Shown here: piece by piece, positions 32,169-64,000 of the stretch
Layout of the letters: each line of letters begins with the position of its first letter
Numbering within the stretch: the stretch's first letter is position 1
DNA from: an uncultured Chloroflexia bacterium
GTDB lineage: Bacteria; Chloroflexota; Anaerolineae; JAAYZQ01
Length of the DNA stretch: 64,000 nt
NCBI GenBank assembly: GCA_963700285.1
Contig: CAVOXA010000014.1
Span: 352,001-416,000 of the forward strand
Reading direction: 5' to 3'
The notes under the pieces: generated by a model
The model's input: only the letters and a program-made list of their open reading frames with translations
Databases searched by the model: none
Told to the model about the DNA's origin: nothing
Program-made: the position numbers and the translations under genes

Positions 32169-32170
32169 GG

Positions 32171-34449: not shown

Positions 34450-35484
34450 TCAAAGCCAGGGCGTGATGACCGTGCGGACCTCGCCACCAAAGAGGTGCAG
34501 TTGGTCCATCGCCGCATTGATGGCTCCGGCTTGCAGAGGAACCGTCCGCGTCACCACGTTCGACAGGTCGAGGGTCCCTTGTGCCACAAACTCGACCAGC
34601 AAGGGCAGCTCCCAGAGCAGATGGTCAGAGCAGCCAATGACCTCGGCCTCTTTGGCCAAGAGTTCACGATAGGAGTCTATCTTGAAGGGTTCAGCGGCGA
34701 TGCCAACGATCACCGCCCTGCCCAGGACGCCCAGGGAGCGCAGGGCCTGCTCCATCGTCTCGGGCAGTCCGATGAGTTCCAGGGCTACGTCCACGCCCCT
34801 GCCGCCAGTGAGGCGTATGATCTCGGCCACGGGATCTGCTAACGCGGCGTTGACCGGGATGGCCCCGCAGTCCCGGGCCAGGTTGAGTTTTTCTTGGTTT
34901 ATGTCAACGGCATAGACATGCAGCGCGCCAAAGGCCCGGGCCAGTTGGACGGCCGAAATGCCCAGCCCACCGGCGCCAAACAGGGCGACCGTTTCACCAG
35001 CTTGCAGCCGTGCTTTGCGCAGGGCGTGGAACGAGGTGGAGGATGAGCACATCAACACAGCACCTGCCTCAAACGATACCTCGTCGGGAAGCCGAACCGC
35101 GTTGCGGGCCGGTACGATGATGTATTCGGCATAGCCACCGTCACGATCCTTGCCCAGCATCTCGCCCTGGGAGCAGAATTGCTCGTTGCCTGTTCGACAA
35201 AAACCACACTCGCCGCAGGTCACCAGGTAGTGCAGGCATACCCTATCACCCACCGATACGGCGCTCACCTGAGCCCCCACCTCCTGGACGGTACCGGCGA
35301 TCTCGTGACCCAGTGTCTGGGGCAGAGCGCCTACCGGCGAGGTACCAGCCCGGTAATGGACGTCCGAGTGGCAGATGCCGGCTGCCTTGACCCGTACGAG
35401 GATGTCTCTTGCGCCTACCTGCGGGATGGGCACAGCCCGCATCTCTAGCGGTTTTCCAATCTCAACCAGTTGAACAGCCTGCAT
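34450..35484 (-). CDS. Zn-dependent alcohol dehydrogenase (MDR family)
   Basis: GICHSD, GHE, CGECGFC..C structural Zn, GAGGLG; RBS AGGAGG. Confidence 0.92.
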   Translation of the reverse strand: MQAVQLVEIGKPLEMRAVPIPQVGARDILVRVKAAGICHSDVHYRAGTSPVGALPQTLGHEIAGTVQEVGAQVSAVSVGDRVCLHYLVTCGECGFCRTGNEQFCSQGEMLGKDRDGGYAEYIIVPARNAVRLPDEVSFEAGAVLMCSSSTSFHALRKARLQAGETVALFGAGGLGISAVQLARAFGALHVYAVDINQEKLNLARDCGAIPVNAALADPVAEIIRLTGGRGVDVALELIGLPETMEQALRSLGVLGRAVIVGIAAEPFKIDSYRELLAKEAEVIGCSDHLLWELPLLVEFVAQGTLDLSNVVTRTVPLQAGAINAAMDQLHLFGGEVRTVITPWL

Positions 35485-35537
35485 CTGGTCCTCCTGTGTC
35501 ATACGCTCGTGATGGGCAAAGGTCCCCAATCGGCGGT

Positions 35538-35557
35538 GGTCGGAGACCTGGCCGAAC
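35538..35557. repeat. Short REP-like motif GGTCGGAGACCTGGCCGAAC (second copy near 36966-36983)
   Basis: Near-identical motif in the gaps on both sides of the PrpD gene. Confidence 0.55.
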
Positions 35558-35571
35558 TGATGGGGTCCGGA

Positions 35572-36915
35572 TCAGGCCAGTAGTTGTGCAAACTGGCGCA
35601 CGTCACCTACCTGATCAAAGGCCCAAACCATCTCAACCAGCTCGTCGATCTGGCCCTCAGCCAGGACGTGGCCAGCGAGCCAGCGGAATTTACCTGCCAG
35701 CCGTTCCTCATCCCAGCCCTGCTGGGGGTAGTTGATGTTGCCCTCGACCATACCCGACTCGTGGATGGTGCCATCCTCCAGAGTGATGGTCACGCGAGCC
35801 GCGTATTTGCCCTTGGGATCTCCCTTCTGAAGCAGGCGGCTGAGTTCATTCAGGTCGCCGGCTTCCACGAGTTCGACCTTTTCGGCCAGGCTGCGTATCT
35901 TTGAGTCACCGAAACGATGGTCCAGAACCTGGGCGGGACCCACCTCTCCGTCAACCAAGAGGGCCGCCAACGGCCAGGCCAGGCTGAACTGCGCTTCTTC
36001 GGTTGTGGTCGGGAGTTCTGTTCCCAACCGGACCGTTTGGTGCGGCGCTTCGACGTATAGGTGGGCGATCTCTGCTACGTCGATGCCGTGGGTAGCAACC
36101 AGTTGCTGCGCCCCCTTCATCGCCGCGTGGTTCCAGGCACAGCAAGCATAACCTTTCCAGGCAACGCCGCCGGCCATGATATAGGTCTGTCCGATGTCGC
36201 CGACCCAATCGCTGTACTCTTGCAGGCCCAGGACACTGGGAACACCGGTGAAGCCCCTTGCTGCCAATTGGGCAGCCGTGATGCCGGTCATCGCCCCCCA
36301 GCCAATGCCGTGCTTGACCATGGCCGGATCGTCAATGTCGCGCATCATGGGCAGGTTGGGCGCATGGTAGGCAGCGATGCCAAGGGCGTGCCGTGTCTGT
36401 TCTGGGCTGAGTCCCAGAAGGTGGGCAGCCACAGCCGCGCAGGCCACTGAGCCCCAAGAGCCACATGCCTGGTAGACCTCCTGGGTGGCGTGCCAGATGC
36501 GAGCAGTTCGATGGGCGACCTCGTAGCCGACGACCATTGCCGTAAGCATTTTCGACCCGCTTGCGGCCAGCGCCTCGCCCAGGGCCAGCGCGGTGGGGAA
36601 GATCTGCGCGCCAGGATGGCCCTTGGTGTACAGGGCACAGTCATCAATGTCCACGCCGTTGGCGGTGTAGCCGTTGGCAAAAGCCGCACCGATGGCTGAG
36701 GCGCGCCGCCCATGGAGGAGGATCGTCGCCTCTTGCCCGGACCATGTTTCCGCGGCGTACTGGGCGGTGATGCGGCTGACGGGTGTCAGCGTGCCAGCCA
36801 GTGTCGCCCCCAACGTGTCCAGCAGGGTCATGTGGGCTGCGCGCTGCACTGAAGGTGACAGCTTTTCCCAGGTTATGTCACTTACGAAGCGAGCCACAAT
36901 TTCGTTGCCGTTCAT
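35572..36915 (-). CDS. MmgE/PrpD family protein
   Basis: LLDTLG, DIDD...GHPG, VGYEV, K.YACC...H, AQFSL. Confidence 0.9.
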   Translation of the reverse strand: MNGNEIVARFVSDITWEKLSPSVQRAAHMTLLDTLGATLAGTLTPVSRITAQYAAETWSGQEATILLHGRRASAIGAAFANGYTANGVDIDDCALYTKGHPGAQIFPTALALGEALAASGSKMLTAMVVGYEVAHRTARIWHATQEVYQACGSWGSVACAAVAAHLLGLSPEQTRHALGIAAYHAPNLPMMRDIDDPAMVKHGIGWGAMTGITAAQLAARGFTGVPSVLGLQEYSDWVGDIGQTYIMAGGVAWKGYACCAWNHAAMKGAQQLVATHGIDVAEIAHLYVEAPHQTVRLGTELPTTTEEAQFSLAWPLAALLVDGEVGPAQVLDHRFGDSKIRSLAEKVELVEAGDLNELSRLLQKGDPKGKYAARVTITLEDGTIHESGMVEGNINYPQQGWDEERLAGKFRWLAGHVLAEGQIDELVEMVWAFDQVGDVRQFAQLLA

Positions 36916-36991: not shown

Positions 36992-38419
36992 CTAGCTCCC
37001 GAGAATATGGGCAATCTCCTGGCGTTGGCCGGCGGGCAATGGGGCCGGCCTGTGCTCCTCAATGATGGCCACTGTCTTTTCTCGCAATCGCTGGCCGAGC
37101 CTCTCACTGCCAGCGGCCACCCAATCGTCGGCCCGCCGCCTGTCAAAAAGACCGGGCCGCCACAGTTCGCGAAAATGCTTCAACGTGTGCCCTGCTGTCA
37201 AAAAGTCGCCGCCCGGCCCAACCTGGTGGATCACGTCCAACGCCAGGGACTCGGCGTCCAGCGACAGGCCCTGCATAAAGCGGCGCATCATTGAGATGAC
37301 CTCGGCCGTAAAGACGACCATCTCCGGGGAAGTCGTCAGGCCGGCCTCCAGGTAGCCGACGTCGTGCACCAGGTTTCCTCCCGCCAGTAGCGCCACCTGC
37401 ACCGAGAATGCAGCGTCGGCCGCCGCCTGCTCGTCCATGGCACAACTATCGGAGTGGCCGGCATAGCCCCAGGTTGGAAGGCCGTAGTACCGCCCCATCT
37501 CGGCCACAGCCACCCGGGCCAGTTGAAACTCGGGGGCACCGTAAACGCTGATGGTGCTTTTCATGTCCATGTGATGCAGTCCGCTGCCATAGACAAAGGG
37601 AGCGCCGGGGCGCACGAGCTGGTGCAGGACCAGGCTTGACAGGACCTCGGCGTTGCCCAGAGCCAGCCCACCGGCCAGGGTCACAGGCGCCGTGCCGCCC
37701 ATCATTGGCGCCGGGGAATGGACGATGGGCAGGGCCTGCTCGGCCATGTACAGCAGCTTGCCGGTAGCGGTTTCAGAATGCGAAAGGGGGGTCGTTGGCT
37801 CCGAGTAGAGAAGCAGCGTGGGATTCAGACGCAAGGACTCCATCCCGCCCGCGGGTACCGAGGCCATCGCGGCGATGGCTTCGCAGTCAGCCCGGTCGTC
37901 ACAGACAAAGACGATGGGCTTGCTGGTATGCTCCAGCATCAGCGAGAATTGGAGGCGGTAGGCGTTGGCGGTCGTCCAGTCAGAGGGGATGCCCATGGAC
38001 ATGCAGAAACCCAGTTCAGGCAGGGCGTCCACGACGTGGATGGCGTCGACCACGTCGGCAACCGTGAACGAGCGATGCTGCCCGGTGCGGGGATCGAGAT
38101 AGTTGGGGCAGTCTGAGCCCGGGCCAAAGCTGACCTGCCTGCCTTCCAGGGAAACAGAGACTTGATCGCTGCCCCGGCGGCATAGCGCGATCCGGGAGGG
38201 AGCCTGCTTCACAGCCCACTCTACCAGGCCGGCCGGAAAGCGGACCAGATTTGTGTCGGTGATGAGGGCGTCGGTCTGGCTCAGGAGGGCCAACGCTCCG
38301 TCGTGATGGATGCGCACGCCGGTGCGCCTCAGAATCTCCAGTGATGCGCGGTGCACGACCTCACACTGCTCTCGGCTGAGCATCGCCAGACGGGGAACTG
38401 CCAGGGTTTCATCTGTCAT
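36992..38419 (-). CDS. MttB-superfamily methyltransferase 1 (non-pyrrolysine)
   Basis: H.ASLEIL..TGV, GGTAPVTLAG, YGAPE, AGHSDS, GNLVHDVGYLE, VGPGG.FL. Confidence 0.92.
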   Translation of the reverse strand: MTDETLAVPRLAMLSREQCEVVHRASLEILRRTGVRIHHDGALALLSQTDALITDTNLVRFPAGLVEWAVKQAPSRIALCRRGSDQVSVSLEGRQVSFGPGSDCPNYLDPRTGQHRSFTVADVVDAIHVVDALPELGFCMSMGIPSDWTTANAYRLQFSLMLEHTSKPIVFVCDDRADCEAIAAMASVPAGGMESLRLNPTLLLYSEPTTPLSHSETATGKLLYMAEQALPIVHSPAPMMGGTAPVTLAGGLALGNAEVLSSLVLHQLVRPGAPFVYGSGLHHMDMKSTISVYGAPEFQLARVAVAEMGRYYGLPTWGYAGHSDSCAMDEQAAADAAFSVQVALLAGGNLVHDVGYLEAGLTTSPEMVVFTAEVISMMRRFMQGLSLDAESLALDVIHQVGPGGDFLTAGHTLKHFRELWRPGLFDRRRADDWVAAGSERLGQRLREKTVAIIEEHRPAPLPAGQRQEIAHILGS

Positions 38420-38629: not shown

Positions 38630-39952
38630 CTAGTGGCCGGTAACTTCGGCAATGGAGTCGCGCAATCGTGTTACGATCTCGTCTACCTGGGATTCCGTGA
38701 TGACGAAGGGGGGGCCGACCAGGATGGCGTCCCCATCCCTACCATCCGCGAGACCGGTACCAATGTAGACGATAAGGCCGCGCGCCATGCAGGCGGCCTG
38801 AACCCGTTCGGCGATCCTATCGGCCCGGGGATAGGGTTGGCGGCTTTGCCGGTCTGCGACCAGCTCGACGCCCGCCATCAGGCCCAAACCGCGGACATCG
38901 CCTACAGCAGAAAGCTCGCGCAGGGATTCGAATTGAGCCAGCAGGTGGTCCCCCATGGCTGCGCTGCGAGCGACCAGATCATGAGCGCGCAGGTGGCGGA
39001 GCACGGCCAGGGCAACGGCCGCTCCCAGTACGCCATTGGCATAGGTGAAACCGTGGGCGAAATTTCCAGAACCGTGGCGGATTGCCGCCACCATCTCCCC
39101 GCTGCACAGAACCAGGCCCAGCGGGTAATAGCCACTGCTGGCTCCCTTGGCGGTTACCAGGATGTCGGGAGTGACATCCCAGTGCTCTACTCCAAACCAG
39201 CGCCCGGTCCGGCCGAAACCGGTCATCACTTCGTCGGCAATGAGCAACACACCATAGCGGTCACAGATCTCGCGCACGCGGGGCCAATATTCCGGAGGGG
39301 GCACCGCGGCGGCCAGGGTCGCACCGACGACCGGTTCCCCGACAAAGGCCATCACTGTTTCCGGTCCTTGGCGAAGGATCTCTGCCTCCAGGGCAGCGGC
39401 GCAGGCAGTGTCGCAATCCGGGTAGGACTGCCCAAATGGACAGCGGTAGCAATAGGCTGGAGGGATGTGGGCCACGTCCAGCAATAACGGCGCATAGGCC
39501 GTGCGCAGGGGCGTACGACCGGAGACCGACAGCGCGCCCAGGGTCGATCCGTGATAGCTTCCCCAACGCGCGACGATCTTGGAGCGACCCGGTTCCCCAC
39601 GGGAGACGCACACCTGCCGGGCCAGCTTGAGTGCTGTCTCCATGGCCTCGGAGCCGCCAGACACCAGATAGATCCAGGGCTCGGGAATCGGAGAGACCTG
39701 GCCCAATTTCCCGGCATAATTCTCCAGCACGTCGCTGGTGAATTGGGTGCCATGGGCAAAGGCTACCTGCCGCGCCTGGACTGCCAGCGCTTCGACGATC
39801 TGGGCCACTCCGTGGCCCAGGTTGACCACCAGAGCGCCACCAGCAGCATCCAGGTACTGCCGGCCGGCGGTATCATAGAGGTAGACGCCCTCGCCACGCT
39901 GGACAACTGGATAGTCATGCGCCAGCCTGCGGTGGAAAACGTGCCCGCTCAT
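38630..39952 (-). CDS. Class III PLP aminotransferase
   Basis: YLDAAGG, SGGSEA, SYHG.T, DEVMTGFGRTG, AKG, RGLGLM. Confidence 0.92.
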   Translation of the reverse strand: MSGHVFHRRLAHDYPVVQRGEGVYLYDTAGRQYLDAAGGALVVNLGHGVAQIVEALAVQARQVAFAHGTQFTSDVLENYAGKLGQVSPIPEPWIYLVSGGSEAMETALKLARQVCVSRGEPGRSKIVARWGSYHGSTLGALSVSGRTPLRTAYAPLLLDVAHIPPAYCYRCPFGQSYPDCDTACAAALEAEILRQGPETVMAFVGEPVVGATLAAAVPPPEYWPRVREICDRYGVLLIADEVMTGFGRTGRWFGVEHWDVTPDILVTAKGASSGYYPLGLVLCSGEMVAAIRHGSGNFAHGFTYANGVLGAAVALAVLRHLRAHDLVARSAAMGDHLLAQFESLRELSAVGDVRGLGLMAGVELVADRQSRQPYPRADRIAERVQAACMARGLIVYIGTGLADGRDGDAILVGPPFVITESQVDEIVTRLRDSIAEVTGH

Positions 39953-40773
39953 GGTTGCACCTGCGCCAGACCCAGGATCTTCCGCGTCTCGCCGGGCGTG
40001 GCCACCGGCCGGCCGAGTTCGGCCGCCAGGCGTGCGACACGGGCAACTAGCTGCTCATTGGTAGCCAGTTCTCCCTTGCGATAGTACAGGTTATCCTCCA
40101 GGCCCACGCGGACGTGACCACCCATGACTATTGCCAGGGCGGCCATCGGCAGTTGCCAGCGACCAGCCCCCGCCACCGTCCAGGTCGAGCCCGGTGGGAT
40201 CGACTCGCTCAGGAACAGCAGGTTTTTGGGTGTGGCCGGCAGCGATCCTGGGATGCCGAGCACAAAATCAAAGTGAAAAGGCGCTACGGCCAAGCCCTTC
40301 TTTGCCAGAAGCAGCGCGTTGGCGATCATGCCAGGTTCAAAGACCTCCATCTCGGGTTTGGTACTCGTTTCCACCATGGCCGCGGCCAGGTAGTCGATGA
40401 CCTCGAAAGGATTGGCATAGACGCGATCGGGAAAGTTCATGGAACCCGTGGTCAGCGAAGCCATCTCGGGCCGGATCAAGCGTACGGCTGCGGCCCGCTG
40501 CTCTGGGTCCATTCCCGCCCGCCCGCCGGTAGAGATCTGGACGATGAGATCGGTGCGCGCGGTGATCTGCTCATGAATGCGAGCAAAGACCTCTGGATCG
40601 AGGGTCGGCCGGCCCTGCCCATCGCGGGCGTGGATATGGATCAGGCTCGCGCCGGCCTCGCGGCAGCAGACGGCGACATCCGAGATCTCTTCCGGTGTTA
40701 CCGGAAGCGCTGGGTTTTGGTCTTTGGTCGGCACATTGCCTGTCGGAGCCACGGTGATGATGAGATTGCTCAT
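39949..40773 (-). CDS. Beta-keto acid cleavage enzyme (BKACE/Kce, DUF849)
   Basis: ITVAPTG, HIHAR, ISTGG, GSMNF, GHVRVGLED. Confidence 0.92.
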   Translation of the reverse strand: MSNLIITVAPTGNVPTKDQNPALPVTPEEISDVAVCCREAGASLIHIHARDGQGRPTLDPEVFARIHEQITARTDLIVQISTGGRAGMDPEQRAAAVRLIRPEMASLTTGSMNFPDRVYANPFEVIDYLAAAMVETSTKPEMEVFEPGMIANALLLAKKGLAVAPFHFDFVLGIPGSLPATPKNLLFLSESIPPGSTWTVAGAGRWQLPMAALAIVMGGHVRVGLEDNLYYRKGELATNEQLVARVARLAAELGRPVATPGETRKILGLAQVQP

Positions 40774-40910
40774 GAGTACGAACCCTCGCCGGTGTTTAGC
40801 TATCACACCGGCCTGAAAGAGCCGGTGTTAGAAAAAGGGCCGGTGCTAGCAATTGAAACCGATAGAAATGTTCCCAGTGGTGCCGGTTTGCAGCGGTGCA
40901 GGGATCGCAC

Positions 40911-42362
40911 TCACCCAGCGAGAATGCCACTTGGAATGCTTTCTCCAATTGCGAGAGGCTGCGCGCCCCGGATCTGAGCCAGCGTGCGTGCCATCTCGTT
41001 GTGTACCAGACTGATCGCCTCGTCCACTCCCATGCCCGGCTTGGCCATGATGATCTCTGGCCGCGTTGCCAGGGCGACGTGGGCAGACACCCGGGCCGAG
41101 AGATCCGTTTCGATGTAGCTTCCGCCCAGGAAGGCACCTATACCACCTCTTTTGCAGGCCAACACTGCCTCCACGACATTGTGAATACCACCCAGGTCCG
41201 GCATCTTGATCTGGATCATGTCCGCCGCTCGCGCTTCTACAAAGGCGCAAATGTCCTCCAGGGTGTTGGCCCATTCGTCGGCCACCAGTTGAACCCGCAT
41301 CTTTCGCAGTGCAACATAGTTGCGCAGTGTCTTCATGGTCTCGATCTGGGCGGCGCGGCTGTCCAGGACCATGGGGCTCTCGATGCGGAGCTGGTAGGGT
41401 TGGGCCGCGGTCTCCCAGGCGTAAAGGAGCCCCAACATGCGACCCAGGCTGTGCTCGCAGATCTGCGCCAGGGCGCCGTGCACATCAAGGTGAATCGCCG
41501 GATGATAATCCTCCCCGCCCAGCTCGCCAATCCTGCCAGACAGCCAGCGGATATAGCGCGTTAGCTCTGTACCGTCCATCCCGAGCTGTCCAGGAATGTC
41601 ATCCACCAGAGCATGGGGCAGGGAAGCAACCCGGCGAGCGATCATCTTTTCCGCGTTGTAGTAGCGCTCGCTGCCCGATTGTGCGTGAATGGGGATGGCC
41701 GCATCAGGCAATGAAAGCTCCCACTCAGCGGATACTACTTCGGCCATCGTTGTCCCACGAGCAAGAGCCACAGCCTGGAGCAGAGCCTGGCCGAGGCCAT
41801 AGCGCACCGCCGCATGCAGCGGGCGTTGGACGACGACGGTGTCTGTGGCCGCCCCTTCTTCCTGGGCCGCGCGCAACAACTTGGCGGGCGCCGTGATGAG
41901 GGCCCGTCGGGAGAAACCCTGGCTACGATCGGCGGGAGGCTGAGGTGGTGTGGGACTGCTGATTTCGACGCGCTCGGTGAGGGAGTCAATCTGTGCCGAG
42001 AGGGCGCGAAAGCTGGTTAGCTCGCGGCCCTGGAGCGCCGGAGCCACGACGCGCTGGATGGTGTCCAGGCCGTTCTCAGCACGAAAGACAGGATCGCGCC
42101 CAGATTTGGCGGCGTAGGCTACGGCCACGCAGTCACCCCAGGCGACACGTTTGCTTTGCCCTGAGGCGGTTGCGGGTTCATCCAGTACCAGACCCACCGA
42201 CACGACCTCGGCGACCTCGCGGACCGCACGGAATCCGGGCGTGACAGGCGCGGCCGTGAACCTCAATGGCAAAGGCACGTGTTCAGCCTGAAGGGCGGCC
42301 AGGTCGTCATAGTAACCCGCGCCAACGGCCGGTACGGCCAGTACCTGCTTGATGGAGGTCAA
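40911..42362 (-). CDS. mal: Methylaspartate ammonia-lyase homologue with altered active site
   Basis: YYDD, GDC, GRDP, LH.AVRYG, AQSG, LPHAL, HLDV, RIE.PM, VADEW, QIK.PDLGG, AKPGMGVDE. The TTG start overlaps the upstream stop (TTGA). Confidence 0.88.
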   Translation of the reverse strand: MTSIKQVLAVPAVGAGYYDDLAALQAEHVPLPLRFTAAPVTPGFRAVREVAEVVSVGLVLDEPATASGQSKRVAWGDCVAVAYAAKSGRDPVFRAENGLDTIQRVVAPALQGRELTSFRALSAQIDSLTERVEISSPTPPQPPADRSQGFSRRALITAPAKLLRAAQEEGAATDTVVVQRPLHAAVRYGLGQALLQAVALARGTTMAEVVSAEWELSLPDAAIPIHAQSGSERYYNAEKMIARRVASLPHALVDDIPGQLGMDGTELTRYIRWLSGRIGELGGEDYHPAIHLDVHGALAQICEHSLGRMLGLLYAWETAAQPYQLRIESPMVLDSRAAQIETMKTLRNYVALRKMRVQLVADEWANTLEDICAFVEARAADMIQIKMPDLGGIHNVVEAVLACKRGGIGAFLGGSYIETDLSARVSAHVALATRPEIIMAKPGMGVDEAISLVHNEMARTLAQIRGAQPLAIGESIPSGILAG

Positions 42363-43351
42363 GACCAAGGTTCCATGGAAATGGCCGAGGAGGGGCAGGC
42401 ATTGGCGCAAAGACCACAACCCCAGCACCTCTCCGGATCATAGCGTACCTGGTCCTTGGTTTTGCCCTCGACCTCTATGATTGCCCCGTCGTGGTAGAAG
42501 GCGTCAAAGTGACAGCGCTTCACACATGCGCCACAGAGGTTGCAGAGATCGGCATCATAGACGGCGATGTAGCGACTCCTGGGCCAGATGCCCTTGCTGC
42601 CTAGCTCCTGGGCGGCCCGAAAGGGATAGCAGTCACAGGCACAGCAATTGCAGATGGCGTGCAGGCCCCTCGTCCGCCATTCACTGTCGCCGGTGTGCAT
42701 CAGGCCTTTTTTGTCCGCCCAGCGGACGAGTTCTATGGCCTCATCGACGGTTACCCGCCGCCCATGACCCCTGGCCAACGCCCCCAAGGCACCTTCGTCC
42801 ATCCAGGTACAGACTTCCACTGGCCGGTCGCAGTGCTGTCCCAACCGCCGGCAATCACAGGGCTGGATGACAATGTGCTGGGCGGCTCTGAGCATCTCCT
42901 CTACCTCGCCCAGAAGCAGCACGGTATCGTTGGGCAGAGCATTCTCGGCTTCCAGGCCCTGCATCTTGCGCTGGATGTTGGTCCGGTGCCGGGAGATGAA
43001 CTCGTCCAGGAACCGGCGGTCGATTCGCTGGCGATCCTCCGCGGGTATGTCATCCCAGTTTTCGTGGATGGCAAAGTGGTTCAAGAAAGTGTAAAAGCTG
43101 GTGGGAGAGTAGGCCGTACCATCAGCCTGTTCCTCCTTGTCCACGATGGAGCGTTCATAGCAGCGATGCAGCAAGGCGGCGGCCTGGTCGTGCTGGAGGC
43201 CCAGCAGCTCGGATACTTGCGACTGAGTCACCAACCTATCATGAGTTGAGACCACCAGTTGCATTTCCAGATCATCGAACATGATCGGAAGGTAGGGCTC
43301 AACCTCTTCCCACACGCCAAATACACTCACAAAGGCATCTACCAATGCCAT
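42359..43351 (-). CDS. Multi-Cys 4Fe-4S binding protein
   Basis: CDCR...C, ICNCCACDC, CNLCGACVKRC, CWGCGLCANACP. Confidence 0.85.
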   Translation of the reverse strand: MALVDAFVSVFGVWEEVEPYLPIMFDDLEMQLVVSTHDRLVTQSQVSELLGLQHDQAAALLHRCYERSIVDKEEQADGTAYSPTSFYTFLNHFAIHENWDDIPAEDRQRIDRRFLDEFISRHRTNIQRKMQGLEAENALPNDTVLLLGEVEEMLRAAQHIVIQPCDCRRLGQHCDRPVEVCTWMDEGALGALARGHGRRVTVDEAIELVRWADKKGLMHTGDSEWRTRGLHAICNCCACDCYPFRAAQELGSKGIWPRSRYIAVYDADLCNLCGACVKRCHFDAFYHDGAIIEVEGKTKDQVRYDPERCWGCGLCANACPSSAISMEPWS

Positions 43352-44877: not shown

Positions 44878-45663
44878 CTAGACGTGCCCGTAGTAGTCGC
44901 GATGCACCGCCACGGAGTAGGCATAGTCCAGGAGCGTACCCCAGGTGAATATGGGGATGTCGATCTCACGCTGAATGGCACGAGCGAAAGGCTGCATGCC
45001 GGTGCATTCCAGCATCATGGCCCCCATGTTGGGGTGAGAACCGTAGAAATCAACGGCGACCTGGACGAATTCCTGTTCGGCTTTGTCATAGTAGGCACCC
45101 GGCGGATCGGTCCGCTCGGGCTCGTACCACAGGTGCTCGAACTCGGGGCAGCGACCATCGTCCTCGGCTCCAGCGACCACATAGTTGCTGCCCGGCTGGA
45201 TGCCGACCGATTCCAGGTGGACCGGCAGCAACTGGGCCTCACGCGCCACGAGAATGCCAACAACCCTTTGCGGCCCGATGAGCTGTTGGGCAAAGGGCAC
45301 TTGCAGCAAGCTGGACAAGAATACAGGCACATCGACAAAGCCAGCGATGGCCTTTTGAAAGTAGGCAAAATAGCCGCATTCGGCGGCGACGGCCCGGCAG
45401 CCCATGCCCTCCAGTTTTTTGGCGGCGCGCTGGATGGGCTCCAGACAAGGCGATTTGTCCTCCTCGTGGACCAGGGCCCAGATGTCCACTCCCTCGGCAA
45501 TCTCGTACTGGATCGGGAAGGGGAAGGCGCTGGCGTTGCGCACGTCGCCAGGGAAACCAGGGTAGACGTCGTCCAGGATGATGATGCCCAAGCCCATGCC
45601 ATAGCAGCGATGGTCTTTGCGGGCCTTGATATAGTTGATGCCCATGTCTCGATTTTGATACAT
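44878..45663 (-). CDS. Asp/Glu/hydantoin racemase family protein A
   Basis: GIIILD..P..PGDVRNA, AECGYF, SSLLQVP, LECTGM (two Cys). Confidence 0.8.
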   Translation of the reverse strand: MYQNRDMGINYIKARKDHRCYGMGLGIIILDDVYPGFPGDVRNASAFPFPIQYEIAEGVDIWALVHEEDKSPCLEPIQRAAKKLEGMGCRAVAAECGYFAYFQKAIAGFVDVPVFLSSLLQVPFAQQLIGPQRVVGILVAREAQLLPVHLESVGIQPGSNYVVAGAEDDGRCPEFEHLWYEPERTDPPGAYYDKAEQEFVQVAVDFYGSHPNMGAMMLECTGMQPFARAIQREIDIPIFTWGTLLDYAYSVAVHRDYYGHV

Positions 45664-51508: not shown

Positions 51509-51619
51509 GATACTCAATCCTCCCTGATTCGTTGGCTAAAGATTGGCGGAAAGGGGGCCGGCTGGCTGCCTACGGCAGTGCGCCAACCCCTGATGCTCCG
51601 ATAGACAACTTTTCCGCAC

Positions 51620-55468: not shown

Positions 55469-56380
55469 CTATGCCCCAGCTCGCGCCAGGATAAAGTCCA
55501 CAAAACTGACGATGGGGTCAAAGCCGATCACGCTGGGCGCATCGGCCACAAAGTTGGACAATGGGTTGATGTCATAGTAGTAGGCCCGTCCGTCCCGCTC
55601 GCTGACCAGGTATTCCACACTGCCAAGGTCTGCCCTGGAGGCGGCAAGGATCTGCTTGACTTCCTCCACGATCTCTGACGGGGGTGAAAATGCTTCGACG
55701 GACAGATCTGGATTTTCGACATTGCAGCCATCGGCCGGGCAGTAGTTAAAGCTGTCGGCGGCCATCGGCAGACGGATCGCGTACAGCAACTGGTCGCCCA
55801 AGATCTCGACGCGGATGATCTGCCTGCCCGTGGCGGGCAGGCATTCTTGAACCAGGCCCGTATGGTCGATGCCTAGATCGAGCGTTCCGGCCTCGACGGC
55901 CAGCGCGAGTTCGTCGAGGTCCTCGAATCTACCGATGCCGACACCACTGCCGCCGATGTTGGGCTTGACCAGGATGGGGAAAGTGAGGCCGCTGGCGGCC
56001 TGCAATGCTTGCCGGGAATGGTGAAACACACGCGCCCTGGGGTAGTGCAGGCCGAGACGCTCAAAGATAGCAAGCTGCATGGCCTTGGATGCACCGATCA
56101 GATAGGAATGGTAGCCGTTGACGACCTCCGCCCCAATGCTCTCCAGGTAGGCCAGGTACTGCTGGATGTACAGGACGACCTGCGGATGGGCACCCCCCGA
56201 AGGATAGGCGCTGACACGATTGACGACGAGAGCGTAGGGACACTCGCGCAAAGAAGGATCATAGAAGTGATCGGGCACAAACTCCCTCACATAGGGTACA
56301 TTGCGCCGATCCAGCTCGGAAAAGAGCGGCTCAAACCACTGGGGATGCTCGTAGAGTACGGCTATGGGCTTCTCAGACAT
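55469..56380 (-). CDS. ATP-grasp (RimK/GshB-like) protein
   Basis: FPILVKPNIGGSG, LVQE, VEY, YYDIN..SNF. Confidence 0.8.
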   Translation of the reverse strand: MSEKPIAVLYEHPQWFEPLFSELDRRNVPYVREFVPDHFYDPSLRECPYALVVNRVSAYPSGGAHPQVVLYIQQYLAYLESIGAEVVNGYHSYLIGASKAMQLAIFERLGLHYPRARVFHHSRQALQAASGLTFPILVKPNIGGSGVGIGRFEDLDELALAVEAGTLDLGIDHTGLVQECLPATGRQIIRVEILGDQLLYAIRLPMAADSFNYCPADGCNVENPDLSVEAFSPPSEIVEEVKQILAASRADLGSVEYLVSERDGRAYYYDINPLSNFVADAPSVIGFDPIVSFVDFILARAGA

Positions 56381-57161
56381 GTCCATAGTAGTCGCGGTGC
56401 ACCGCCGCCGAGTAGGCATAGTCCAGGAGCGTCCCCCAGCTAAAAACCGGGATCTCTATCTCTCGCTGCAGCGCCCGGGCAAAGGGCTGCATGCCAGTGC
56501 ACTCTAGAACCATGGCCCCCATGTTGGGATAGTCATGGAAGAAGGCAGTCGCCACGGCCAAGAACTCTTGCTCTGCTCTATCATAGTAGGCTTCCGGTGG
56601 GTCTGGGCGCGTGGATTCAAGCCAGAGATTGTCAAACTGTGGGCAACGCCCATACTCCTCGATGCCGCCCAGCACATAGTTAGTGTCAGGTTGAATGCCC
56701 ACTGCCGCAAGATGGCCGGCGGTCATGTCTTTTTTCGACGATGCGAATAACCCAACCAGCCTATTCGAACCAATGAGCTGTTGGGCCCAAGACACCTGGA
56801 GAAGGCTGGACATGAAGACTGGTACATCGACGTGCCTGGCTATCTCTTTTTGGAAATAGGCGAAATAGCCGCACTCGGCAGCGATGGCCCGACAACCGAT
56901 CTCTTCCAGTTTTTTGGCCGCCCGCTGGATGGGCGCGAGGCAGGGCGACTTGTCCTCCTCGTCGACCAGGGCCACGATGTCGACGCCTTCCGCGACCTCG
57001 TACTGGATGGGGAAAGGATAGGCACTGGCGTTCCGGACGTCGCCGGGAAAGCCCGGGTAGGACTCGTCCAGGATGATGATACCCAGGCCCATGCCGTAAC
57101 AGCGGTGATCCCGCCGGGCTCTGATATGGTTGAGGCCCATATCACGATTCTGGTACATCAT
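56373..57161 (-). CDS. Asp/Glu/hydantoin racemase family protein B
   Basis: Close paralogue of 44878..45663; AECGYF and LECTGM. Confidence 0.8.
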   Translation of the reverse strand: MMYQNRDMGLNHIRARRDHRCYGMGLGIIILDESYPGFPGDVRNASAYPFPIQYEVAEGVDIVALVDEEDKSPCLAPIQRAAKKLEEIGCRAIAAECGYFAYFQKEIARHVDVPVFMSSLLQVSWAQQLIGSNRLVGLFASSKKDMTAGHLAAVGIQPDTNYVLGGIEEYGRCPQFDNLWLESTRPDPPEAYYDRAEQEFLAVATAFFHDYPNMGAMVLECTGMQPFARALQREIEIPVFSWGTLLDYAYSAAVHRDYYGHV

Positions 57162-57297: not shown

Positions 57298-58749
57298 TCA
57301 GGCAAATGATTCTTCTGCACGCTGAACCACGGCATGAATCGCCTGCACCACATCCTGGGGCAGCAGCTCTGGCTCGTGCTTCTCGAGGATCTTGACGACG
57401 CGATCCACAGCCCTCTCAGCCAGGCTCTGGCCTCCGGCGGCCTGCCACTGGGCATAATTGCCGCGTTCAAACACGCCAGGATACCACCGCTCTTTGAAAT
57501 GGGCCATGGTATGCCTCTCGCCAAGGAAGGAGCCATCAGGACCCAACTCGTCGATGAGGTCCAGCGCCAGGGTTTCGTCACTGATCTCGATGGGCCCCAG
57601 CAGGTGAGCGATCCAGTCTACGATCTGGTCGCATATGACCAATTGGGCCAACGAGCCACAGAGCCCCGACTCCAGATACCCCAGATCGTGGATCAAGTGC
57701 GCCCCGCCCAGCGTCTCGGCCATCAGTGTCAAGGCTGCCTCAGCAGCAGCTTGCCCGTCCACCAGCTTTGACTCGCTGCAGCCGCCGATGCCGAACATGG
57801 GCAGCCGGTAGTGCTGAGCAAGGGCATGGGCCATGCCCTTGGGGTCCGGCGCGCAATAGGGGCTGACCATGGTACGCATGTCGAGTCCTTCACCGCCCCA
57901 GCCAGGTACAATGTAGGGCGCTCCCTCGCGCTTGAGTTGAGAGAGGACCAAGCCGATGAGTACTCCGGCATTGACCAGGGCCATCCCAGCCGCGGGAGTG
58001 ACGGGTCCGTTGATGCCACAGTCGACAACAGGGATGTACAGAAAAGGAAGCCCCTTGCCGGCCAGGAAGAGCAGCTTCTGCAACGCCTCTTCGTTGTGGC
58101 GCAGGCCACTGGTGACATTGATGTAGCAGGCAGCCGAAGGCTTCAGCATGAGGGCCTCAGCCCCACCTGCGGCGATTTCGGACATCTCGACGGCGTCCAC
58201 ACAACCGGAGAACTCGTTGGTGACAAAGATGATGGGCTTGGTCGTATAGTTGAGCATGGCTTCCATCTGGTAGCGATCGCTGACCATGTCATTCACGTCA
58301 GAGGGCAAGAACATGGACATGACGAAATCGACGTGAGGCAGCGCATCACAGACGACCATGCCGTCAACGATATCCTGCAAGACTGGCTTACGGCGCTCTC
58401 CAGTGCGATGATCGATTATGTTCAGGCAGTCGGATCCGGTCCCGTAGTAGCAGTTGCCCTCCTCCAGGAACAGCGAGGCATGACCACTGCGGTCGTAGAG
58501 CGTCACCCGCTTGGGCACCGTGCTAAAGGCCTTCTCAACAAGACCCGCCGGGACGCGCACGAGGTTGCCGTCGGACACCGAAGCTCCGGCACCCTGAAGC
58601 AGATCAATTGCCTCCTGATCGTAGAGCCGCGCCCCGGTGCGGGCGAGGATTTCGAGGCTGGCGTTGTGCAGTCTGCGGCACTGCTCTTCTGAGACACGAC
58701 TGTACTGTGCCCCACCATGAATCCGGTCGTTAAGTCGAATGCTTGCCAC
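57298..58749 (-). CDS. MttB-superfamily methyltransferase 6 (non-pyrrolysine)
   Basis: 483 aa, closest to MttB4; GGCSESK, HDLGYLESG. Confidence 0.92.
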   Translation of the reverse strand: MASIRLNDRIHGGAQYSRVSEEQCRRLHNASLEILARTGARLYDQEAIDLLQGAGASVSDGNLVRVPAGLVEKAFSTVPKRVTLYDRSGHASLFLEEGNCYYGTGSDCLNIIDHRTGERRKPVLQDIVDGMVVCDALPHVDFVMSMFLPSDVNDMVSDRYQMEAMLNYTTKPIIFVTNEFSGCVDAVEMSEIAAGGAEALMLKPSAACYINVTSGLRHNEEALQKLLFLAGKGLPFLYIPVVDCGINGPVTPAAGMALVNAGVLIGLVLSQLKREGAPYIVPGWGGEGLDMRTMVSPYCAPDPKGMAHALAQHYRLPMFGIGGCSESKLVDGQAAAEAALTLMAETLGGAHLIHDLGYLESGLCGSLAQLVICDQIVDWIAHLLGPIEISDETLALDLIDELGPDGSFLGERHTMAHFKERWYPGVFERGNYAQWQAAGGQSLAERAVDRVVKILEKHEPELLPQDVVQAIHAVVQRAEESFA

Positions 58750-58955: not shown

Positions 58956-60428
58956 CTATTGCACCTCCTGCAGCCAGTGCTGTTCCATGTCATCCAATTC
59001 AGCCACGACCTCCGGCGGCAGAGGCACGGGCTGGTGGTTGTTCAAGATCTGCAGGACGCGGCGGTTCGCTACAGCGTCCAGTGGCAGGCCACCATTGGCC
59101 GCCCACTGGTCATGGTTGCCCCGGTTCAAAAGCGTGGGCCGCCAATTTTCCCGAAAGTGGCGAACCGTGTGCTTTTCCCCGAAGTAGCTCCCCCCGGGAC
59201 CCACCTGCTCCATTACATCCAGAGCCAGGGTATCCGGCGAAATAGGTACGCCAGCCATGATGATACGGATCATGCCGATGAACTCGTCGGCAGCGGTGAT
59301 CAGTTCCAGACAAGCCGAGTTGGCCGCCTCCGTAAACCCGACGTCATGCACCAAGTTGGCACCGCTGAGCGCGGCCATCAGGCAAGACATGGCCGCCTCG
59401 GCTGCCGCCTGCTGGTCAAAGGCCACGGCATCGGTACAGCCGGCGGTGCTGAATACCGGTAGTTTGAGATAGTGGGCCATTTCGGTCAGGGCGGCCGACC
59501 AGAGGTGCATCTCTGGCGCGCCATAGGACACCAGCGTGGTAGACATGTCAATGATTGTTGGCACACCGCCAAAGATGACCGGCGCCCCGCGCCGCTTGAG
59601 CTGGGCCATCACCAGCCCGCTGAGCGACTCGGCCATGCAGGCCACCAGGTTCCCAGCCCCTGTGACGGGTGCCGTGCTTCCCGCGAGCGTCATGGGAGTA
59701 TAGATGACCGGGATGCCGCGCTCAACGCAGTAGAGGAGCTTTTCGACCCCCTCGCCTGTGTGGATCAGAGGCGAGAAGGGCTCAGCATAGTGCACATAGT
59801 AGGGCCTCAAGGCCAGTTCTTGCCACCCACCAGCCACCACAGCCGCCATCTCTGCCACTGCCCGCAGACTAGCAAAGTCCCCCGTACCGTGCATCAGGGG
59901 TTTGGTGCAATTCATCACCGTGTCCTTGTGGCCCGCCCGGATGGCAACCTGGCCAGGCACGTCACTGTACAGTGACGAGAAGGACACCATGTCGATGTTA
60001 GGCAGGGCGTCGCACAGAATGGCACCCAGCCGGGCGTCATCTCGAACGCAGAGCCGGCGGTTATGGTCCAGGAGTGTGTGTGGCGCATAGTAGTAGGGAT
60101 CAAAGAAATAGGTCGAGTCCACCTGACTGCAAAACGAGACCTGGCTGTCCTCCAGGTACACAGATGGCTTGCCGAGGCGGTCATAGACGGTGATCCGGCG
60201 TGGCGCGCTTGCCAGGGCATCCTCCAGCAGGTAGGAGGGGAGGCGTACCTGGCGCTTGGGTCCAACCTTGGCCCCGGCCCCATCAAGCAACGCCAGGCCC
60301 TCGTCATTGTCCACCCTTACGCCTGTGCATTCGAGCAGTTCCATGACGCGCAGAAGAAGGGTCTCTTTCTGATCCTCGGAGAGGACCGTCAGCCGCGGAG
60401 TGACCCGCGTGGTAGAACCAGCCTTCAC
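58956..60428 (-). CDS. MttB-superfamily methyltransferase 7 (non-pyrrolysine)
   Basis: EPFSPL, GSTAPVT.AG, YGAPE, AGCTDA, GANLVHDVG; probable GTG start at 60428. Confidence 0.9.
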   Translation of the reverse strand: MKAGSTTRVTPRLTVLSEDQKETLLLRVMELLECTGVRVDNDEGLALLDGAGAKVGPKRQVRLPSYLLEDALASAPRRITVYDRLGKPSVYLEDSQVSFCSQVDSTYFFDPYYYAPHTLLDHNRRLCVRDDARLGAILCDALPNIDMVSFSSLYSDVPGQVAIRAGHKDTVMNCTKPLMHGTGDFASLRAVAEMAAVVAGGWQELALRPYYVHYAEPFSPLIHTGEGVEKLLYCVERGIPVIYTPMTLAGSTAPVTGAGNLVACMAESLSGLVMAQLKRRGAPVIFGGVPTIIDMSTTLVSYGAPEMHLWSAALTEMAHYLKLPVFSTAGCTDAVAFDQQAAAEAAMSCLMAALSGANLVHDVGFTEAANSACLELITAADEFIGMIRIIMAGVPISPDTLALDVMEQVGPGGSYFGEKHTVRHFRENWRPTLLNRGNHDQWAANGGLPLDAVANRRVLQILNNHQPVPLPPEVVAELDDMEQHWLQEVQ

Positions 60429-60429
60429 G

Positions 60430-61508
60430 TTATCGATGCTCCTTGGAATCTTGGCCGGTGAGAGAAAACCCACCGGGGAATGGGTCGTCGGGGTCGAGGA
60501 CGAATTGGTGGAAACCGGTCAGATGCGCCCGGCCCGTGACCGCGGGGACAATGGCATGAAAGTCACCGACGCGTGTTTCATCGACGATCTGGCCGGTGAA
60601 GCGAGTACCAATGATGCTCTCGCTGACAAAGGACTGGCCCACGGCGAGATCGCCCCTGGCATGGAGTAGGGCCATCCTGGCGCAGGTACCGGTACCACAG
60701 GGGGAGCGGTCTATGGTACACTCCCCAAAAGTGGCTACGTTGCGCGCGTACAGGCTGCCATCGGGCTGTGGTTGGGCCGGCTCGTGGAACTCTACCGCAT
60801 CCACGGCAGTGGTAAAGGGTTGCTCGGGATGCTGAACCTGAAGCTGGGCGTTGGCAGCCCAGCGCAGCCCCATGCCGAGCCGGGCCAGGGCCTCAGCGTT
60901 CCCGGGCACAAGGCTGAGATCAAAAAGCTGTGCATCAACAAGGGCAAAAAAGCCGCCGCTGTACACAATGTCCGCTTGGAGAGGACCCAGTTCTGGAAGA
61001 GACAGGCGGGCGCCGGGTTTGTAGACAAAGACCGGCGCGTTCTGGAAAGTGACATCCAGCACCTGGCCGTCCTGAATGCGACTCCTGGTTCGAACCAGGC
61101 CCACAGGCGTATCAAAGACGACATTTGCTCGCCGCTGCCGGATAGTTGCCTGCCCATTGGCGGAGCTAGCCCCCCACCCGACACCATGCCGGTCTCGATG
61201 AGTGCCGTCGCTGCCCCAATGACGGCATGTCCACACATGGTGGTATACTGCAGCGTATTCATAAAGACCAGCCAAAGTCCGCGGCAGGATCACAGGGCGC
61301 GGTCAGATAGGGCGCCATACATGTCTTGACGGCCTCGCGGTTCGAGCATGAGCAGACCACGAAGGCCGTCCAGTTCCTGACGCGCATGGACCAGCTTTTC
61401 CTCCATGGTGTTGCCCGGAATGGGTGCCAGCCCACCTACCACCAGGCGGGTCGGCTCGCCAGCCGTATGTGAATCTATGGTCGAGACGATGCGCGAAAAC
61501 CGGGCCAT
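60430..61508 (-). pseudogene. Proline racemase family (Cys/Cys), frameshifted
   Basis: IDSHTAGEPTR, EPRG..DMYGA, MCGH and DRSPCGTGT occur across three frames. Confidence 0.8.
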
Positions 61509-61770
61509 GTGCCTCTCTCCAATGTAGGAGATGCTGCCGGCCCGGGCCAGTCCATCGATCGCGGGCATGCTGTCAGGAAAGATCCCGCGATCGGGCTGTC
61601 AGCCCGGGACGGTGCACCGCCCCAAAGTGTATGCGTATCCCACCCCAGCCCCCTCATTCGCTGGATGATTTCCTGTCCCCGTGGGCAGGCGATTGGTAAC
61701 GATGCAGGACAGGAAACCATCTGGCCCATGGGCTAGATGTACAACAACCTTACCGCTAGCAAGGAAGCGC

Positions 61771-62427
61771 TCAGTCAGTCTCCCGCACCTCCAGGATCTC
61801 GACATCCGGGACCCGCTCCAGCACAGCTACGATCTCGTCTTTGGAAACACCGCGGACTTTGAAGACATAGTCCCAGTGATCGGGCTGCTTGGGCGTCCGG
61901 ACGTAGCCGCTGGCATAGATCCCCCAACCCTGCCCGGCAATGGCATTCGTGACATCGGCCAGCACGCCGTAACGATCTGTCGACCGGAAGGCGACGCGGA
62001 CCCCGGATACGTGCTCCCCCAGCAATTCGGTCAGGTGAGCCAAGAGATCGGTGTCGGTGATAATGCCCACCACAATGCCTTCATCGAGGACTGGCAGCCC
62101 GCCGATCTTTTTTTCGACCATAGTCTTGGCTGCATCTTCCAGCGTAGCGTCTGAACAGGTGGACACTACATCTTTGGCCTTGATCATCACGTCCTGGACA
62201 GTTAGTTCCGTCAGAGTGCGGGCGATCTCCCACAGGTCCAGGCTGCCCAGCCTACCCGGATCCACGAGCAGCGTCTGTCGAGTAACCAAGCCAAGCAAGC
62301 GCTTGCCATCACCGACAATGGGCAGGTGGCGGATGTCGTTCTCGCCCATGAATCGCTGGGCGTCGACGATGCACATCGTCGGCTGAACCATGAGCGGATG
62401 TCGTGTCATATAGTCTTTAACCAGCAT
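61771..62427 (-). CDS. CBS-pair plus ACT domain protein (AcuB-like)
   Basis: MLVKDYMT, IRHLPIV, IGGLPV, GIITDTD, C-terminal ACT-like D..GVLA.V. Confidence 0.85.
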   Translation of the reverse strand: MLVKDYMTRHPLMVQPTMCIVDAQRFMGENDIRHLPIVGDGKRLLGLVTRQTLLVDPGRLGSLDLWEIARTLTELTVQDVMIKAKDVVSTCSDATLEDAAKTMVEKKIGGLPVLDEGIVVGIITDTDLLAHLTELLGEHVSGVRVAFRSTDRYGVLADVTNAIAGQGWGIYASGYVRTPKQPDHWDYVFKVRGVSKDEIVAVLERVPDVEILEVRETD

Positions 62428-62506
62428 TCGGTGCCTCCTACGGCATACCAGGATCAGGATGGCCTCATGCCAGACCCGTGGCCATCCATCCTATACCAAA
62501 CTTTGG

Positions 62507-64000
62507 CTAATCGGCAGTCGTCAGGACAGGATCCATCTCACGCAATCGCTCCAGCGGGATATGGCAGAAAATGCGGTGCCCGTCGCCGTCATCCTGCCAC
62601 GGCGGCACCTCTTCTTCACAGATCTTGCCGCCATCGGGCAGCAGCTCCGCCCGGCGCGGGCAGCGGGTGTGGAATCGACAGCCGCTGGGTGGATTGAGGG
62701 CGCTGGGCACGTTGCCGCTGAGGCGGATGTGCTTCTGGCTCCACACTGGGGTCAGGGATCGGCACGGCCGAGAGCAAAGCTTCGGTGTAGGGATGGTAGG
62801 GCGGAGCATAGATGGCCTCCGCAGGCCCGATCTCGGAAATCTGGCCCAGGTACATCACGGCGATGTGATCGCAGAAGAAGCGCACTACACTCAGGTCGTG
62901 GGCGATAAAGATCATCGTCGTGCCCATCTCCTGCTGGATCTCCATCAGCAGATTGAGCACCGCCGCCTGTACCGATACGTCCAGAGCCGAGACCGGCTCA
63001 TCGCACAGAACCAGCTCCGGGCGACCGGCAATGGCCCGGGCAATGCCCACCCGCTGCTTCTCACCACCGCTGAGCTGGCGCGGCAACCGGTCGTAGTAGC
63101 GTTCGCCCAGCTTCATCATGCCGCAGCAGGCGGATCACCTCGTCCCGGACCTGGTTCTTGGGCACGGTCTTGAAGCGCTGCAGCGGGCGCGACGATCTGC
63201 TGGCCGACGGTGAAGGAGGGATTCAGCGTGGAGTCAGGGTTCTGGAACACCATCTGCAGTTCCTGGATGATGGACAGATCCCGCTGTGATCACCTTGTCG
63301 GAGATATCGACGCCCATGAACTCCAACTCGCCGCCGGTGGGCGCTTCCATGCCGATGATGGTCTTGACCAGCGTGCTCTTGCCACAGCCCGACTCGCCGA
63401 CGATGCCCAGGGTCTCTCCCTTTTTCACCGTCAAGCTGACGTCGTCCACCGCTTTGACGTAGTGCTTTTCCCCGCCGATGAGCTTCTTGGAGGGAACCTT
63501 GATAAAAGGTCTTGGCGTTGTCAAGCTGCAGGATCGTCTCGGGCGCTGCTTCCGTAGCCGGCTGCGCTGCCAGTCCGGCCACAACGTCTTCCGGCGGCGT
63601 CCAACCCTGCGGCGGCAATCTCCTCGGCAAAGTGACAGCGGGCCCAGTGCCTCACGTCGATCTGGCGCAGTTCTGGCCTGTCGCAGGCGGCATTCTTCGC
63701 GGGCATAGTCACAGCGCGGCTCAAAGATGCAGCCCGGCGGCAGGTTGGCTGGCGAGGGCACCCGTCCGCGGATGGGATACGAGGTAGCTGCTGCGCTTGT
63801 CCATGCCCAGGCGGGGCACACAGCGCATCAGGCCCTGGGTGTAGGGGTGGTAGGGGCTCAGATAGACGTCCGCTACCGAGGCCCGCTCGACGATCTCGCC
63901 AGCGTACATCACGCCCACCTTGGTCGACACCCGGGCGACGACGCCCAGGTTGTGGCTGATGTACATGATGGCGGTGTCAAAGTCGCGCTGCAGGTCGGCG
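62507..64000 (-). pseudogene. Fused dipeptide/oligopeptide ABC ATPase (DppD/F-like), partial at the window edge, multiple frameshifts
   Basis: [42 protein letters not shown], split over several frames. Confidence 0.8.

Follow-up and report, generated by a model that had tools for sequence, protein, structure and literature searches.

The question raised by this stretch of DNA from an uncultured Chloroflexia bacterium is what a long, closely packed series of MttB paralogues does in the company of racemases, lyases and aminotransferases. The stretch, referred to below as the window, comprises 64,000 nucleotides (G000:C14:352,001-416,000, on contig CAVOXA010000014.1) of a 7.05-Mb genome that is 89% complete. 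Its part from 34,450 to 64,000 had been read in an initial annotation as a locus of about 30 kb in which seven non-pyrrolysine MttB homologues and a set of accessory enzymes constitute one pathway that demethylates, epimerizes and cleaves at a C-N bond a panel of methylated osmolytes or amino acids. The locus is real and conserved, and is apparently an undescribed variant of the corrinoid demethylation systems with a new lyase subfamily; what was observed directly is which genes are present, which residues are exchanged and how the genes are linked. New here are a clade of MttB proteins devoid of the arginine at position 312 of MtgB and a natural Q73A variant of methylaspartate ammonia-lyase (MAL) with an F170H exchange and an additional arm. 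We give an about even chance to the reading that the locus is an anaerobic module which imports N-methylated amino-acid-type compounds, transfers their methyl groups to B12 and releases a substituted amine from an aspartate-like skeleton.

The seven MttB homologues of the window are all encoded on the minus strand, as annotated, and match PF06253 over most of their length (E 1e-80 to 1e-92): MttB1 (36992..38419), MttB2 (43383..44834), MttB3 (47104..48558), MttB4 (48551..50002), MttB5 (50041..51517), MttB6 (57298..58749) and MttB7 (58956..60473). Pairwise identities range from 31% to 62%, the latter between MttB6 and MttB4, so that most of them are old paralogues. The extent of about 30 kb held as far as it went, but the locus continues for about 15 kb beyond the window, to G000:C14:430,912, and then spans about 42-44 kb with 11 pyrrolysine-free MttB instead of seven, two corrinoid proteins (MttC) and an Opp-type importer. 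Beyond the window edge (G000:C14:416,001-430,912), the ATPase is joined by the remaining genes of this Opp/Dpp ATP-binding cassette (ABC) importer (permeases and a Tat-type family-5 binding protein), and then by one broken MttB, the first corrinoid protein, three MttB with an interspersed class I aminotransferase and the second corrinoid protein. Both cognate MttC (B12-binding/B12-binding_2) lie upstream, at distances of 7.6 and 14.3 kb from the end of the window; for RACo, ACS and pterin-binding domains, the genome has genes outside the locus, on C22 and C1.

The non-pyrrolysine assignment of the MttB holds. In none of the seven in the window is the pyrrolysine position occupied by a TAG codon in frame, no pyrrolysyl-tRNA synthetase (PylRS) above cut-off was found in the genome, which is 89% complete, and the eight locus MttB scanned against the pyrrolysine MttB model TIGR02369 score 318-443 bits, all under its cut-off of 525. 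The top score among those scanned (442.7) belongs to a paralogue beyond the window and outside the main clade, in which an Rfam PYLIS_3 match (L001:13541-13640, 53 bits) begins exactly at the codon equivalent to that of pyrrolysine; this codon is ATG. Pyrrolysine read-through was rejected, as PylRS was not found above cut-off and the upstream PYLIS match begins at ATG.

With respect to the substrate, MtgB is reported to bind glycine betaine via Y97, R312, H348 and F356, with R312L being inactive, and the same report states that R312 is retained in MtcB, MtpB, MthB and MtyB (PMC13080624). The sites were mapped by aligning MttB4 to MtgB (2QNE/9YCE) and to pyrrolysine MttB (7XCL), where they lie in well-aligned motifs. 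MttB4 possesses Ser, Phe, His and Gly at the four positions and Cys at the pyrrolysine site; pyrrolysine MttB has Tyr at the Arg312 site. Arg312 is found in none of the ten alignable MttB of the locus, and not in the C-terminal fragment of the eleventh, with Phe (as in MttB2, MttB3 and MttB7), Trp (as in MttB1 and MttB5) or Tyr instead; the pyrrolysine site is occupied by Cys also in MttB3 and MttB7 and by His in MttB1. Absent as well is the cation-pi pair Tyr97 and Phe356 of MtgB, at which Ser, Pro, Thr, Val or Gly and Gly, Ala or Met are found, respectively. This pattern extends to 82 MttB at related loci (those covering at least 330 profile positions in 44 lyase-bearing loci, shorter ones dropped), among which Arg312 is present in none, His348 in all 82, an adjacent Asp in 79 and Cys at the pyrrolysine site in 22. 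In a tree of 33 entries from the source genome and one from a relative, ten of the eleven locus MttB fall into one clade of 16 entries (support 95/92). To judge from these residues, the locus MttB are non-pyrrolysine members of the superfamily, yet lack the Arg312 that defines the characterised betaine demethylases, and the link to those enzymes drawn in the initial annotation is not supported. The locus MttB are unlikely to use glycine betaine, proline betaine, carnitine or butyrobetaine through a binding mode like that of MtgB.

Ordinary demethylation of glycine, proline or hydroxyproline betaine, carnitine or butyrobetaine by MtgB-, MtpB- or MtcB-like enzymes, with the proline racemase, the OCD protein, the alcohol dehydrogenase and the beta-keto acid cleavage enzyme (BKACE) of the locus processing the products, is thus distinctly unlikely when a residue essential in MtgB is lacking throughout the locus and its relatives; moreover the module seldom contains OCD, BKACE or proline racemase, as detailed below. 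Consistent with it are the retained His348 and the presence in the locus of proline racemase together with a pyrroline-2-carboxylate-reductase-like OCD protein and of alcohol dehydrogenase together with BKACE, combinations that match proline betaine and carnitine chemistry. It would also suit the betaine-type contexts of relatives on alphaproteobacterial plasmids, where homologues of the binding protein (34-41% identity) and of the MmgE/PrpD-family protein (31-37%) neighbour GlxA regulators, a betaine transporter, Rieske oxygenase, sarcosine oxidase, MttB and a corrinoid protein. These contexts appear to support N-methylated substrates in general and none in particular. One such plasmid, from Aminobacter (L160:12224-20414), carries an operon in which a corrinoid protein and a relative of the binding protein accompany MttB, together with an enolase-family enzyme and an old yellow enzyme (OYE) oxidoreductase; the layout is similar to that of the locus, with a different enolase-superfamily member.

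The partner of the MttB clade is a MAL-like lyase of the enolase superfamily (40911..42368, minus strand), which is single-copy in the genome, scores 414.5 against TIGR01502 (cut-off 286.15) and is predicted to adopt the MAL fold (pLDDT 86; Foldseek E 1e-41). Its top sequence match is 3ZVH, the structure of the engineered MAL-Q73A, because the lyase naturally has Ala at position 73. The catalytic K331, H194 and Q329 and the Mg ligands D238, E273 and D307 are kept, and the exchanges are Q73A, F170H, Y240H, Y356F, T360S, C361Y and L384M. Among the best 119 of 2,439 homologues (the best 120 with the lyase itself removed), K331, D238, E273 and D307 are each present in all 119 and H194 in 118. Q73 occurs in none of these (Ala in 50, Ser in 48, Glu in 21), and F170H (119), Y240H (111), T360S (118) and L384M (115) are near-fixed. 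A twin-arginine-like motif within an insertion of about 45 residues (41823..41978) is found in 118 of the same 119; the low-confidence model of this arm (pLDDT 54-63) is an extended beta-hairpin that carries two short helices, its tip being helical. The N-terminal twin-arginine stretch of the binding protein (L001:6228-6812) resembles the motif in the arm, and the arm may resemble the N-terminus of NapF.

In MAL, Q73 is described to line the amine site and F170, Y356 and L384 the methyl pocket, with T360S being neutral (PMC7241714). The locus lyase has A, H, F and M at the four pocket positions, and the neutrality of T360S in MAL suggests that binding of the second carboxylate is likely retained. 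Engineered MAL-Q73A is reported to admit alkylamines (PMC7586795). The simplest inference is that the lyase would eliminate a substituted amine from an aspartate-like acid, its C3 pocket being changed and more polar.

The lyase and MttB are found together across the class. In an even sample of 301 genomes of the class, 169 possess MttB and 25, the source genome included, a MAL gene. All MAL genes of the other 24 genomes encode the arm-bearing variant, and MttB lies in the fetched stretch around the lyase in 23 of them and 11.7 kb away in the 24th; as a background, positions no more than 10 kb away from an MttB make up 6.7% of the MttB-rich source genome. When control loci of at least 10 kb are compared (metagenome loci and L073; 37 shorter loci left out), variant-lyase loci harbour MttB in 7 of 7 and glutamate mutase in 0 of 7 cases, whereas ordinary MAL loci harbour glutamate mutase in 31 of 37 and MttB in 1 of 37. 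Glutamate mutase E was not found in the source genome at its 89% completeness; among the 24 relatives it gives strong matches in 3, on other contigs, and weak matches in 5 more. The classical glutamate-mutase/MAL pathway was rejected, as no mutase was found in the genome and none at the seven variant loci. A phylum-wide sample of 300 genomes contains one further MAL, of the ordinary type and without MttB, and the closest relatives of the locus lyase belong to Chloroflexota, titled Anaerolineae almost throughout. Across at least nine families the lyase adjoins MttB of differing types, and the linkage is a single association retained through many rearrangements, not 24 independent events. Together with the upstream MttC and the RACo, ACS and pterin-binding genes, this class-wide tie supports what the initial annotation had proposed in general terms, namely corrinoid demethylation coupled to C-N cleavage. 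A different non-classical MAL pathway is possibly present in actinomycetes (L034-L040), where MAL homologues with Q73 kept, F170L and no arm neighbour CoA-transferase, amidase, MaoC and Opp genes and no MttB.

In the preferred reading, the family-5 ABC system would import the substrate, and each MttB would transfer a methyl group to Co(I)-MttC, the paralogues differing in substrate or taking successive methyl groups. RACo would reactivate the corrinoid, and the methyl group would be passed to folate and ACS, all encoded elsewhere. In the lyase, Lys331 would abstract the proton next to the Mg-bound carboxylate, whereupon an alkylamine, accommodated in the space that Q73A creates, would be expelled and a fumarate-type acid formed. 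The pairs of proline racemase and OCD and of aminotransferase and BKACE may, like the pyridoxal phosphate (PLP) lyases, be lineage-specific additions that process other demethylated skeletons.

Several observations weigh against this reading. The variant lyases form one clade (47 entries, SH-like support 100), so the linkage to MttB may go back to a single event and the 24 genomes, from 17 genera, do not count as independent. The MttB type that most often adjoins the lyase (15 of 24 genomes) has no orthologue in the source genome, the best match being 39% identical. Three of the 24 lyase copies (L061, L062 and L064) lack D307 and other active-site residues, L064 also K331, and these degenerate copies keep the arm and remain among MttB genes, which hints, on the basis of their residues, at a non-catalytic role and is poorly explained by a purely catalytic one. 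F170H and Y240H suggest a polar C3 substituent, with which dehydration of a hydroxy acid would be possible. Finally, MttB without Arg312 appear poorly suited to a dicarboxylic substrate, so that the lyase and the MttB may act on different molecules.

The degenerate copies and the possible single origin of the lyase clade would fit a loose methylotrophy island, in which MttB paralogues accumulated beside unrelated catabolic genes and the lyase is structural or hitch-hiking, perhaps a scaffold via its arm. The abundance and variability of the genes argue in the same direction: about 42 MttB genes are found genome-wide in several clusters (six-frame search, split pieces merged by hand), gene content around the lyase is highly variable, and even the same-genus genome G249 has one MttB fewer. 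Such an island is nonetheless quite improbable, as the lyase remains by MttB of differing types through many rearrangements in at least nine families and keeps K331, D238, E273 and D307 in all of the best 119 of 2,439 homologues along with fixed pocket changes. Strain DCMF is reported to have 82 MttB (PMC9768040). The seven paralogues emphasized in the initial annotation were counted correctly, but in a genome with about 42 the number of MttB in the locus is unremarkable by itself. Among the other clusters of the source genome, one (G000:C6:169,100-191,000) comprises the eight MttB of C6, which belong to a different clade, one (G000:C10:1,318,600-1,329,400; L071) includes a racemase, a gamma-lyase, a GATase and an aminotransferase, and one (G000:C1:297,500-312,100; L072 and just before) two MttC, RACo and OCD.

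The poor match of Arg-less MttB to a dicarboxylic substrate also raises the reading that the lyase acts first, releasing free mono-, di- or trimethylamine from an imported compound, and that the MttB then demethylate the free amine without pyrrolysine. In place of Arg312 and Phe356, the locus MttB mostly have an aromatic residue and Gly, as in pyrrolysine MttB and unlike MtgB, the invariant His348 with its adjacent Asp and the occasional Cys at the pyrrolysine site may form an acidic pocket, and the Glu73 of 21 of the best 119 of 2,439 lyases suits a cationic leaving group. On the other hand, pyrrolysine is considered necessary for activating free methylamines (PMC12155760), all eight scanned MttB remain under the cut-off for the pyrrolysine type, and eleven paralogues exceed the need of three amines. 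Release before demethylation is on balance unlikely. In its more specific form, the natural Q73A lyase would release methylamines from an N-methylated compound of aspartate type, or add them reversibly to fumarate, with the Arg-less MttB and their pocket of His-Asp and Cys demethylating these without pyrrolysine; this is likewise hardly the probable case. If true, Anaerolineae could use methylamines anaerobically by a route independent of pyrrolysine, its components perhaps kept together by the twin-arginine-like arm of the lyase.

Returning to the module with demethylation and C-N cleavage, its composition can be judged from the 24 genomes, in which neighbours were counted mostly within 10 kb on each side, often limited by contig ends, and within 60 kb for G249. 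Recurrent genes are any MttB (23 genomes), the lyase-adjacent MttB type (15), the gene of a fused OppD/F-type ABC ATPase (15; 62507..64000, frameshifted and running on past the window), that of a Cys-rich 2x[4Fe-4S] protein (15; 42359..43351, overlapping the lyase start) and that of a tandem-CBS protein (14; 61771..62427). A xanthine-dehydrogenase-like molybdenum (Mo) enzyme (12), MttB1 orthologues (11), a Zn-dependent alcohol dehydrogenase of PF08240/PF00107 (7; 34450..35529), the MmgE/PrpD-family protein (6; 35572..36915), a PRK07475 racemase (5) and MttC (5) are less frequent; the Mo enzyme has a 70% identical orthologue in the source genome outside the locus (G000:C10:1,960,242-1,963,921; L070). 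The racemase-like protein is present in two copies here (44878..45663, with two Cys motifs visible, and 56373..57161) that are 74% identical. The PLP gamma-lyase-like protein for Cys/Met (53136..54395) was found in 4 genomes and the proline-racemase-family gene (60430..61508), which retains both Cys motifs, in 2.

Found once each, and always in G249, are BKACE (39949..40806; 357.9 against the NF052387 Kce cut-off of 382, hence below), a class III aminotransferase (38630..39952; PRK07483 above cut-off), the OCD/mu-crystallin protein (54446..55456), for which the best solved relative is Delta1-pyrroline-2-carboxylate reductase, a RimK/LysX-like ATP-grasp protein (55469..56419), a membrane-anchored RdhA/QueG-like B12/Fe-S protein (45706..47076; TIGR02486 146 against 160.35 bits, below cut-off) and the cysteine-desulfurase-like (SufS-like) gene of TIGR01976 type (51620..52900, in pieces). 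Because of their distance from the lyase, 12-18 kb in the source genome, OCD, ATP-grasp and proline racemase could escape notice in shorter stretches; in the 14 genomes with a complete interval between CBS gene and lyase, 13 are without OCD and ATP-grasp and 12 without proline racemase. In one relative, genes for histidine ammonia-lyase and urocanate hydratase stand between the CBS gene and the lyase (L048:7727-11337).

The rarity of the add-ons shows the enzyme list to be a local collection upon a conserved core. All accessory families named in the initial annotation are present, including two PRK07475 genes, proline racemase, PrpD, MAL, OCD, BKACE, alcohol dehydrogenase and PLP enzymes, and Fe-S and B12 proteins are as well, although the B12 protein of the window is RdhA-like and not MttC. 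Co-occurrence with MttB, proposed there as a check, is seen for the MAL-like lyase but not for the six genes confined to G249. A single route of demethylation, epimerization and cleavage is not supported, as racemase and PrpD were found in 5 and 6 of the 24 genomes. For the racemase, no solved relative was found, atlas matches of racemase and Fe-S protein gave generic names only, and the solved relatives of the family-5 binding protein are too distant for naming a ligand.

The gamma-lyase-like and desulfurase-like genes, and the mini-cluster on C10 that again combines MttB, racemase and gamma-lyase, bring up S-methyl or sulfonium substrates such as S-methylmethionine or compounds similar to dimethylsulfoniopropionate (DMSP), from which the enolase-fold enzyme would eliminate the sulfide. 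With these two genes so infrequent next to the lyase (4 and 1 of 24 genomes), and no S-demethylase of the MttB family met in the portion of the literature covered, this is highly unlikely.

The annotated genes from 34,450 to 64,000 are densely packed and all on the minus strand; between 34,450 and 62,427, 26,456 of 27,978 bases are genic, with gaps of -44 to 235 bases and overlaps at 5 of 21 junctions. G249 is collinear at 85-91% nucleotide identity. MttB5 (near 50,270), the SufS-like gene, proline racemase and the ABC ATPase are frameshifted in the window; in G249, proline racemase (354 aa) and the ATPase are intact and different genes are broken, so that most frameshifts are likely assembly indels. 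Real decay was mostly rejected for this reason, the exception being the SufS-like gene, which is broken in both genomes. No tRNA gene was found in the window and no riboswitch by Rfam in the window or 40 kb beyond, and promoter and terminator scans of 32,000-51,999 remained at chance levels (5 versus 5.2 and 13 versus 11.9). A 48-bp tandem repeat of 3.4 copies (96% matches; 52977-53138) lies between the gamma-lyase and SufS-like genes. An M1 peptidase gene (32171-34123), retained in G249, comes after the locus in the same orientation and, further on, 2-oxoacid:ferredoxin oxidoreductase genes (28257-30601) lie on the plus strand.

Most non-pyrrolysine MttB are without an assigned substrate and the characterised ones all use Arg312; a clade that lacks this arginine and has a conserved partner narrows the search for substrates. 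The lyase represents a natural counterpart of a biocatalyst engineered for N-substituted aspartates, with more than 100 sequence clusters available. Given that MttB occurs in more than half of the sampled class genomes, an identified substrate would add a route of methylated-nitrogen turnover in anoxic soils and sediments, competing with methanogens. A description of the MAL-MttB module was not found in the open-access literature, outside which most subscription journals lie.

Among known systems, MtgB/MtgC/MtgA of Desulfitobacterium hafniense and MtpB, MtcB, MtyB and MthB of Eubacterium limosum have in common with the locus the PF06253 fold, the lack of pyrrolysine, clustered corrinoid proteins, RACo and pterin-binding proteins in the genome and His348. 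The locus differs in that its MttB are without Arg312, Tyr97 and Phe356, that eleven MttB are present per two MttC, and that the cluster has no MtgA-type gene, an Opp-type importer and a linked C-N lyase; an accessory enzyme that prepares an MttB substrate has a reported precedent in MthK/MthB (PMC12155760). With the pyrrolysine MttB of Methanosarcina barkeri (7XCL; TIGR02369), most locus paralogues share an aromatic side chain in place of Arg312 and Gly or Ala in place of Phe356, and one upstream paralogue the PYLIS match at the equivalent codon, but TAG and PylRS are missing, scores stay under the cut-off and His-Asp is found where pyrrolysine MttB has Tyr-Gly. The PrpD protein has iminodisuccinate epimerase (2HP0, MmgE/PrpD) as its closest solved relative, with the His motif aligned and kept and the Tyr region gapped (His and Tyr being the catalytic pair of that enzyme), but it is distant (E 6e-28) and its gene infrequent near the lyase. 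With MAL (EC 4.3.1.2) of Clostridium tetanomorphum and Citrobacter amalonaticus and with MAL-Q73A (3ZVH), the lyase shares the fold, K331, H194, Q172, Q329 and the Mg ligands, while its type is distinguished by natural Q73A/S/E, F170H, Y240H, Y356F/L and L384M, the arm of about 45 residues, and linkage to MttB in place of an adjoining glutamate mutase.

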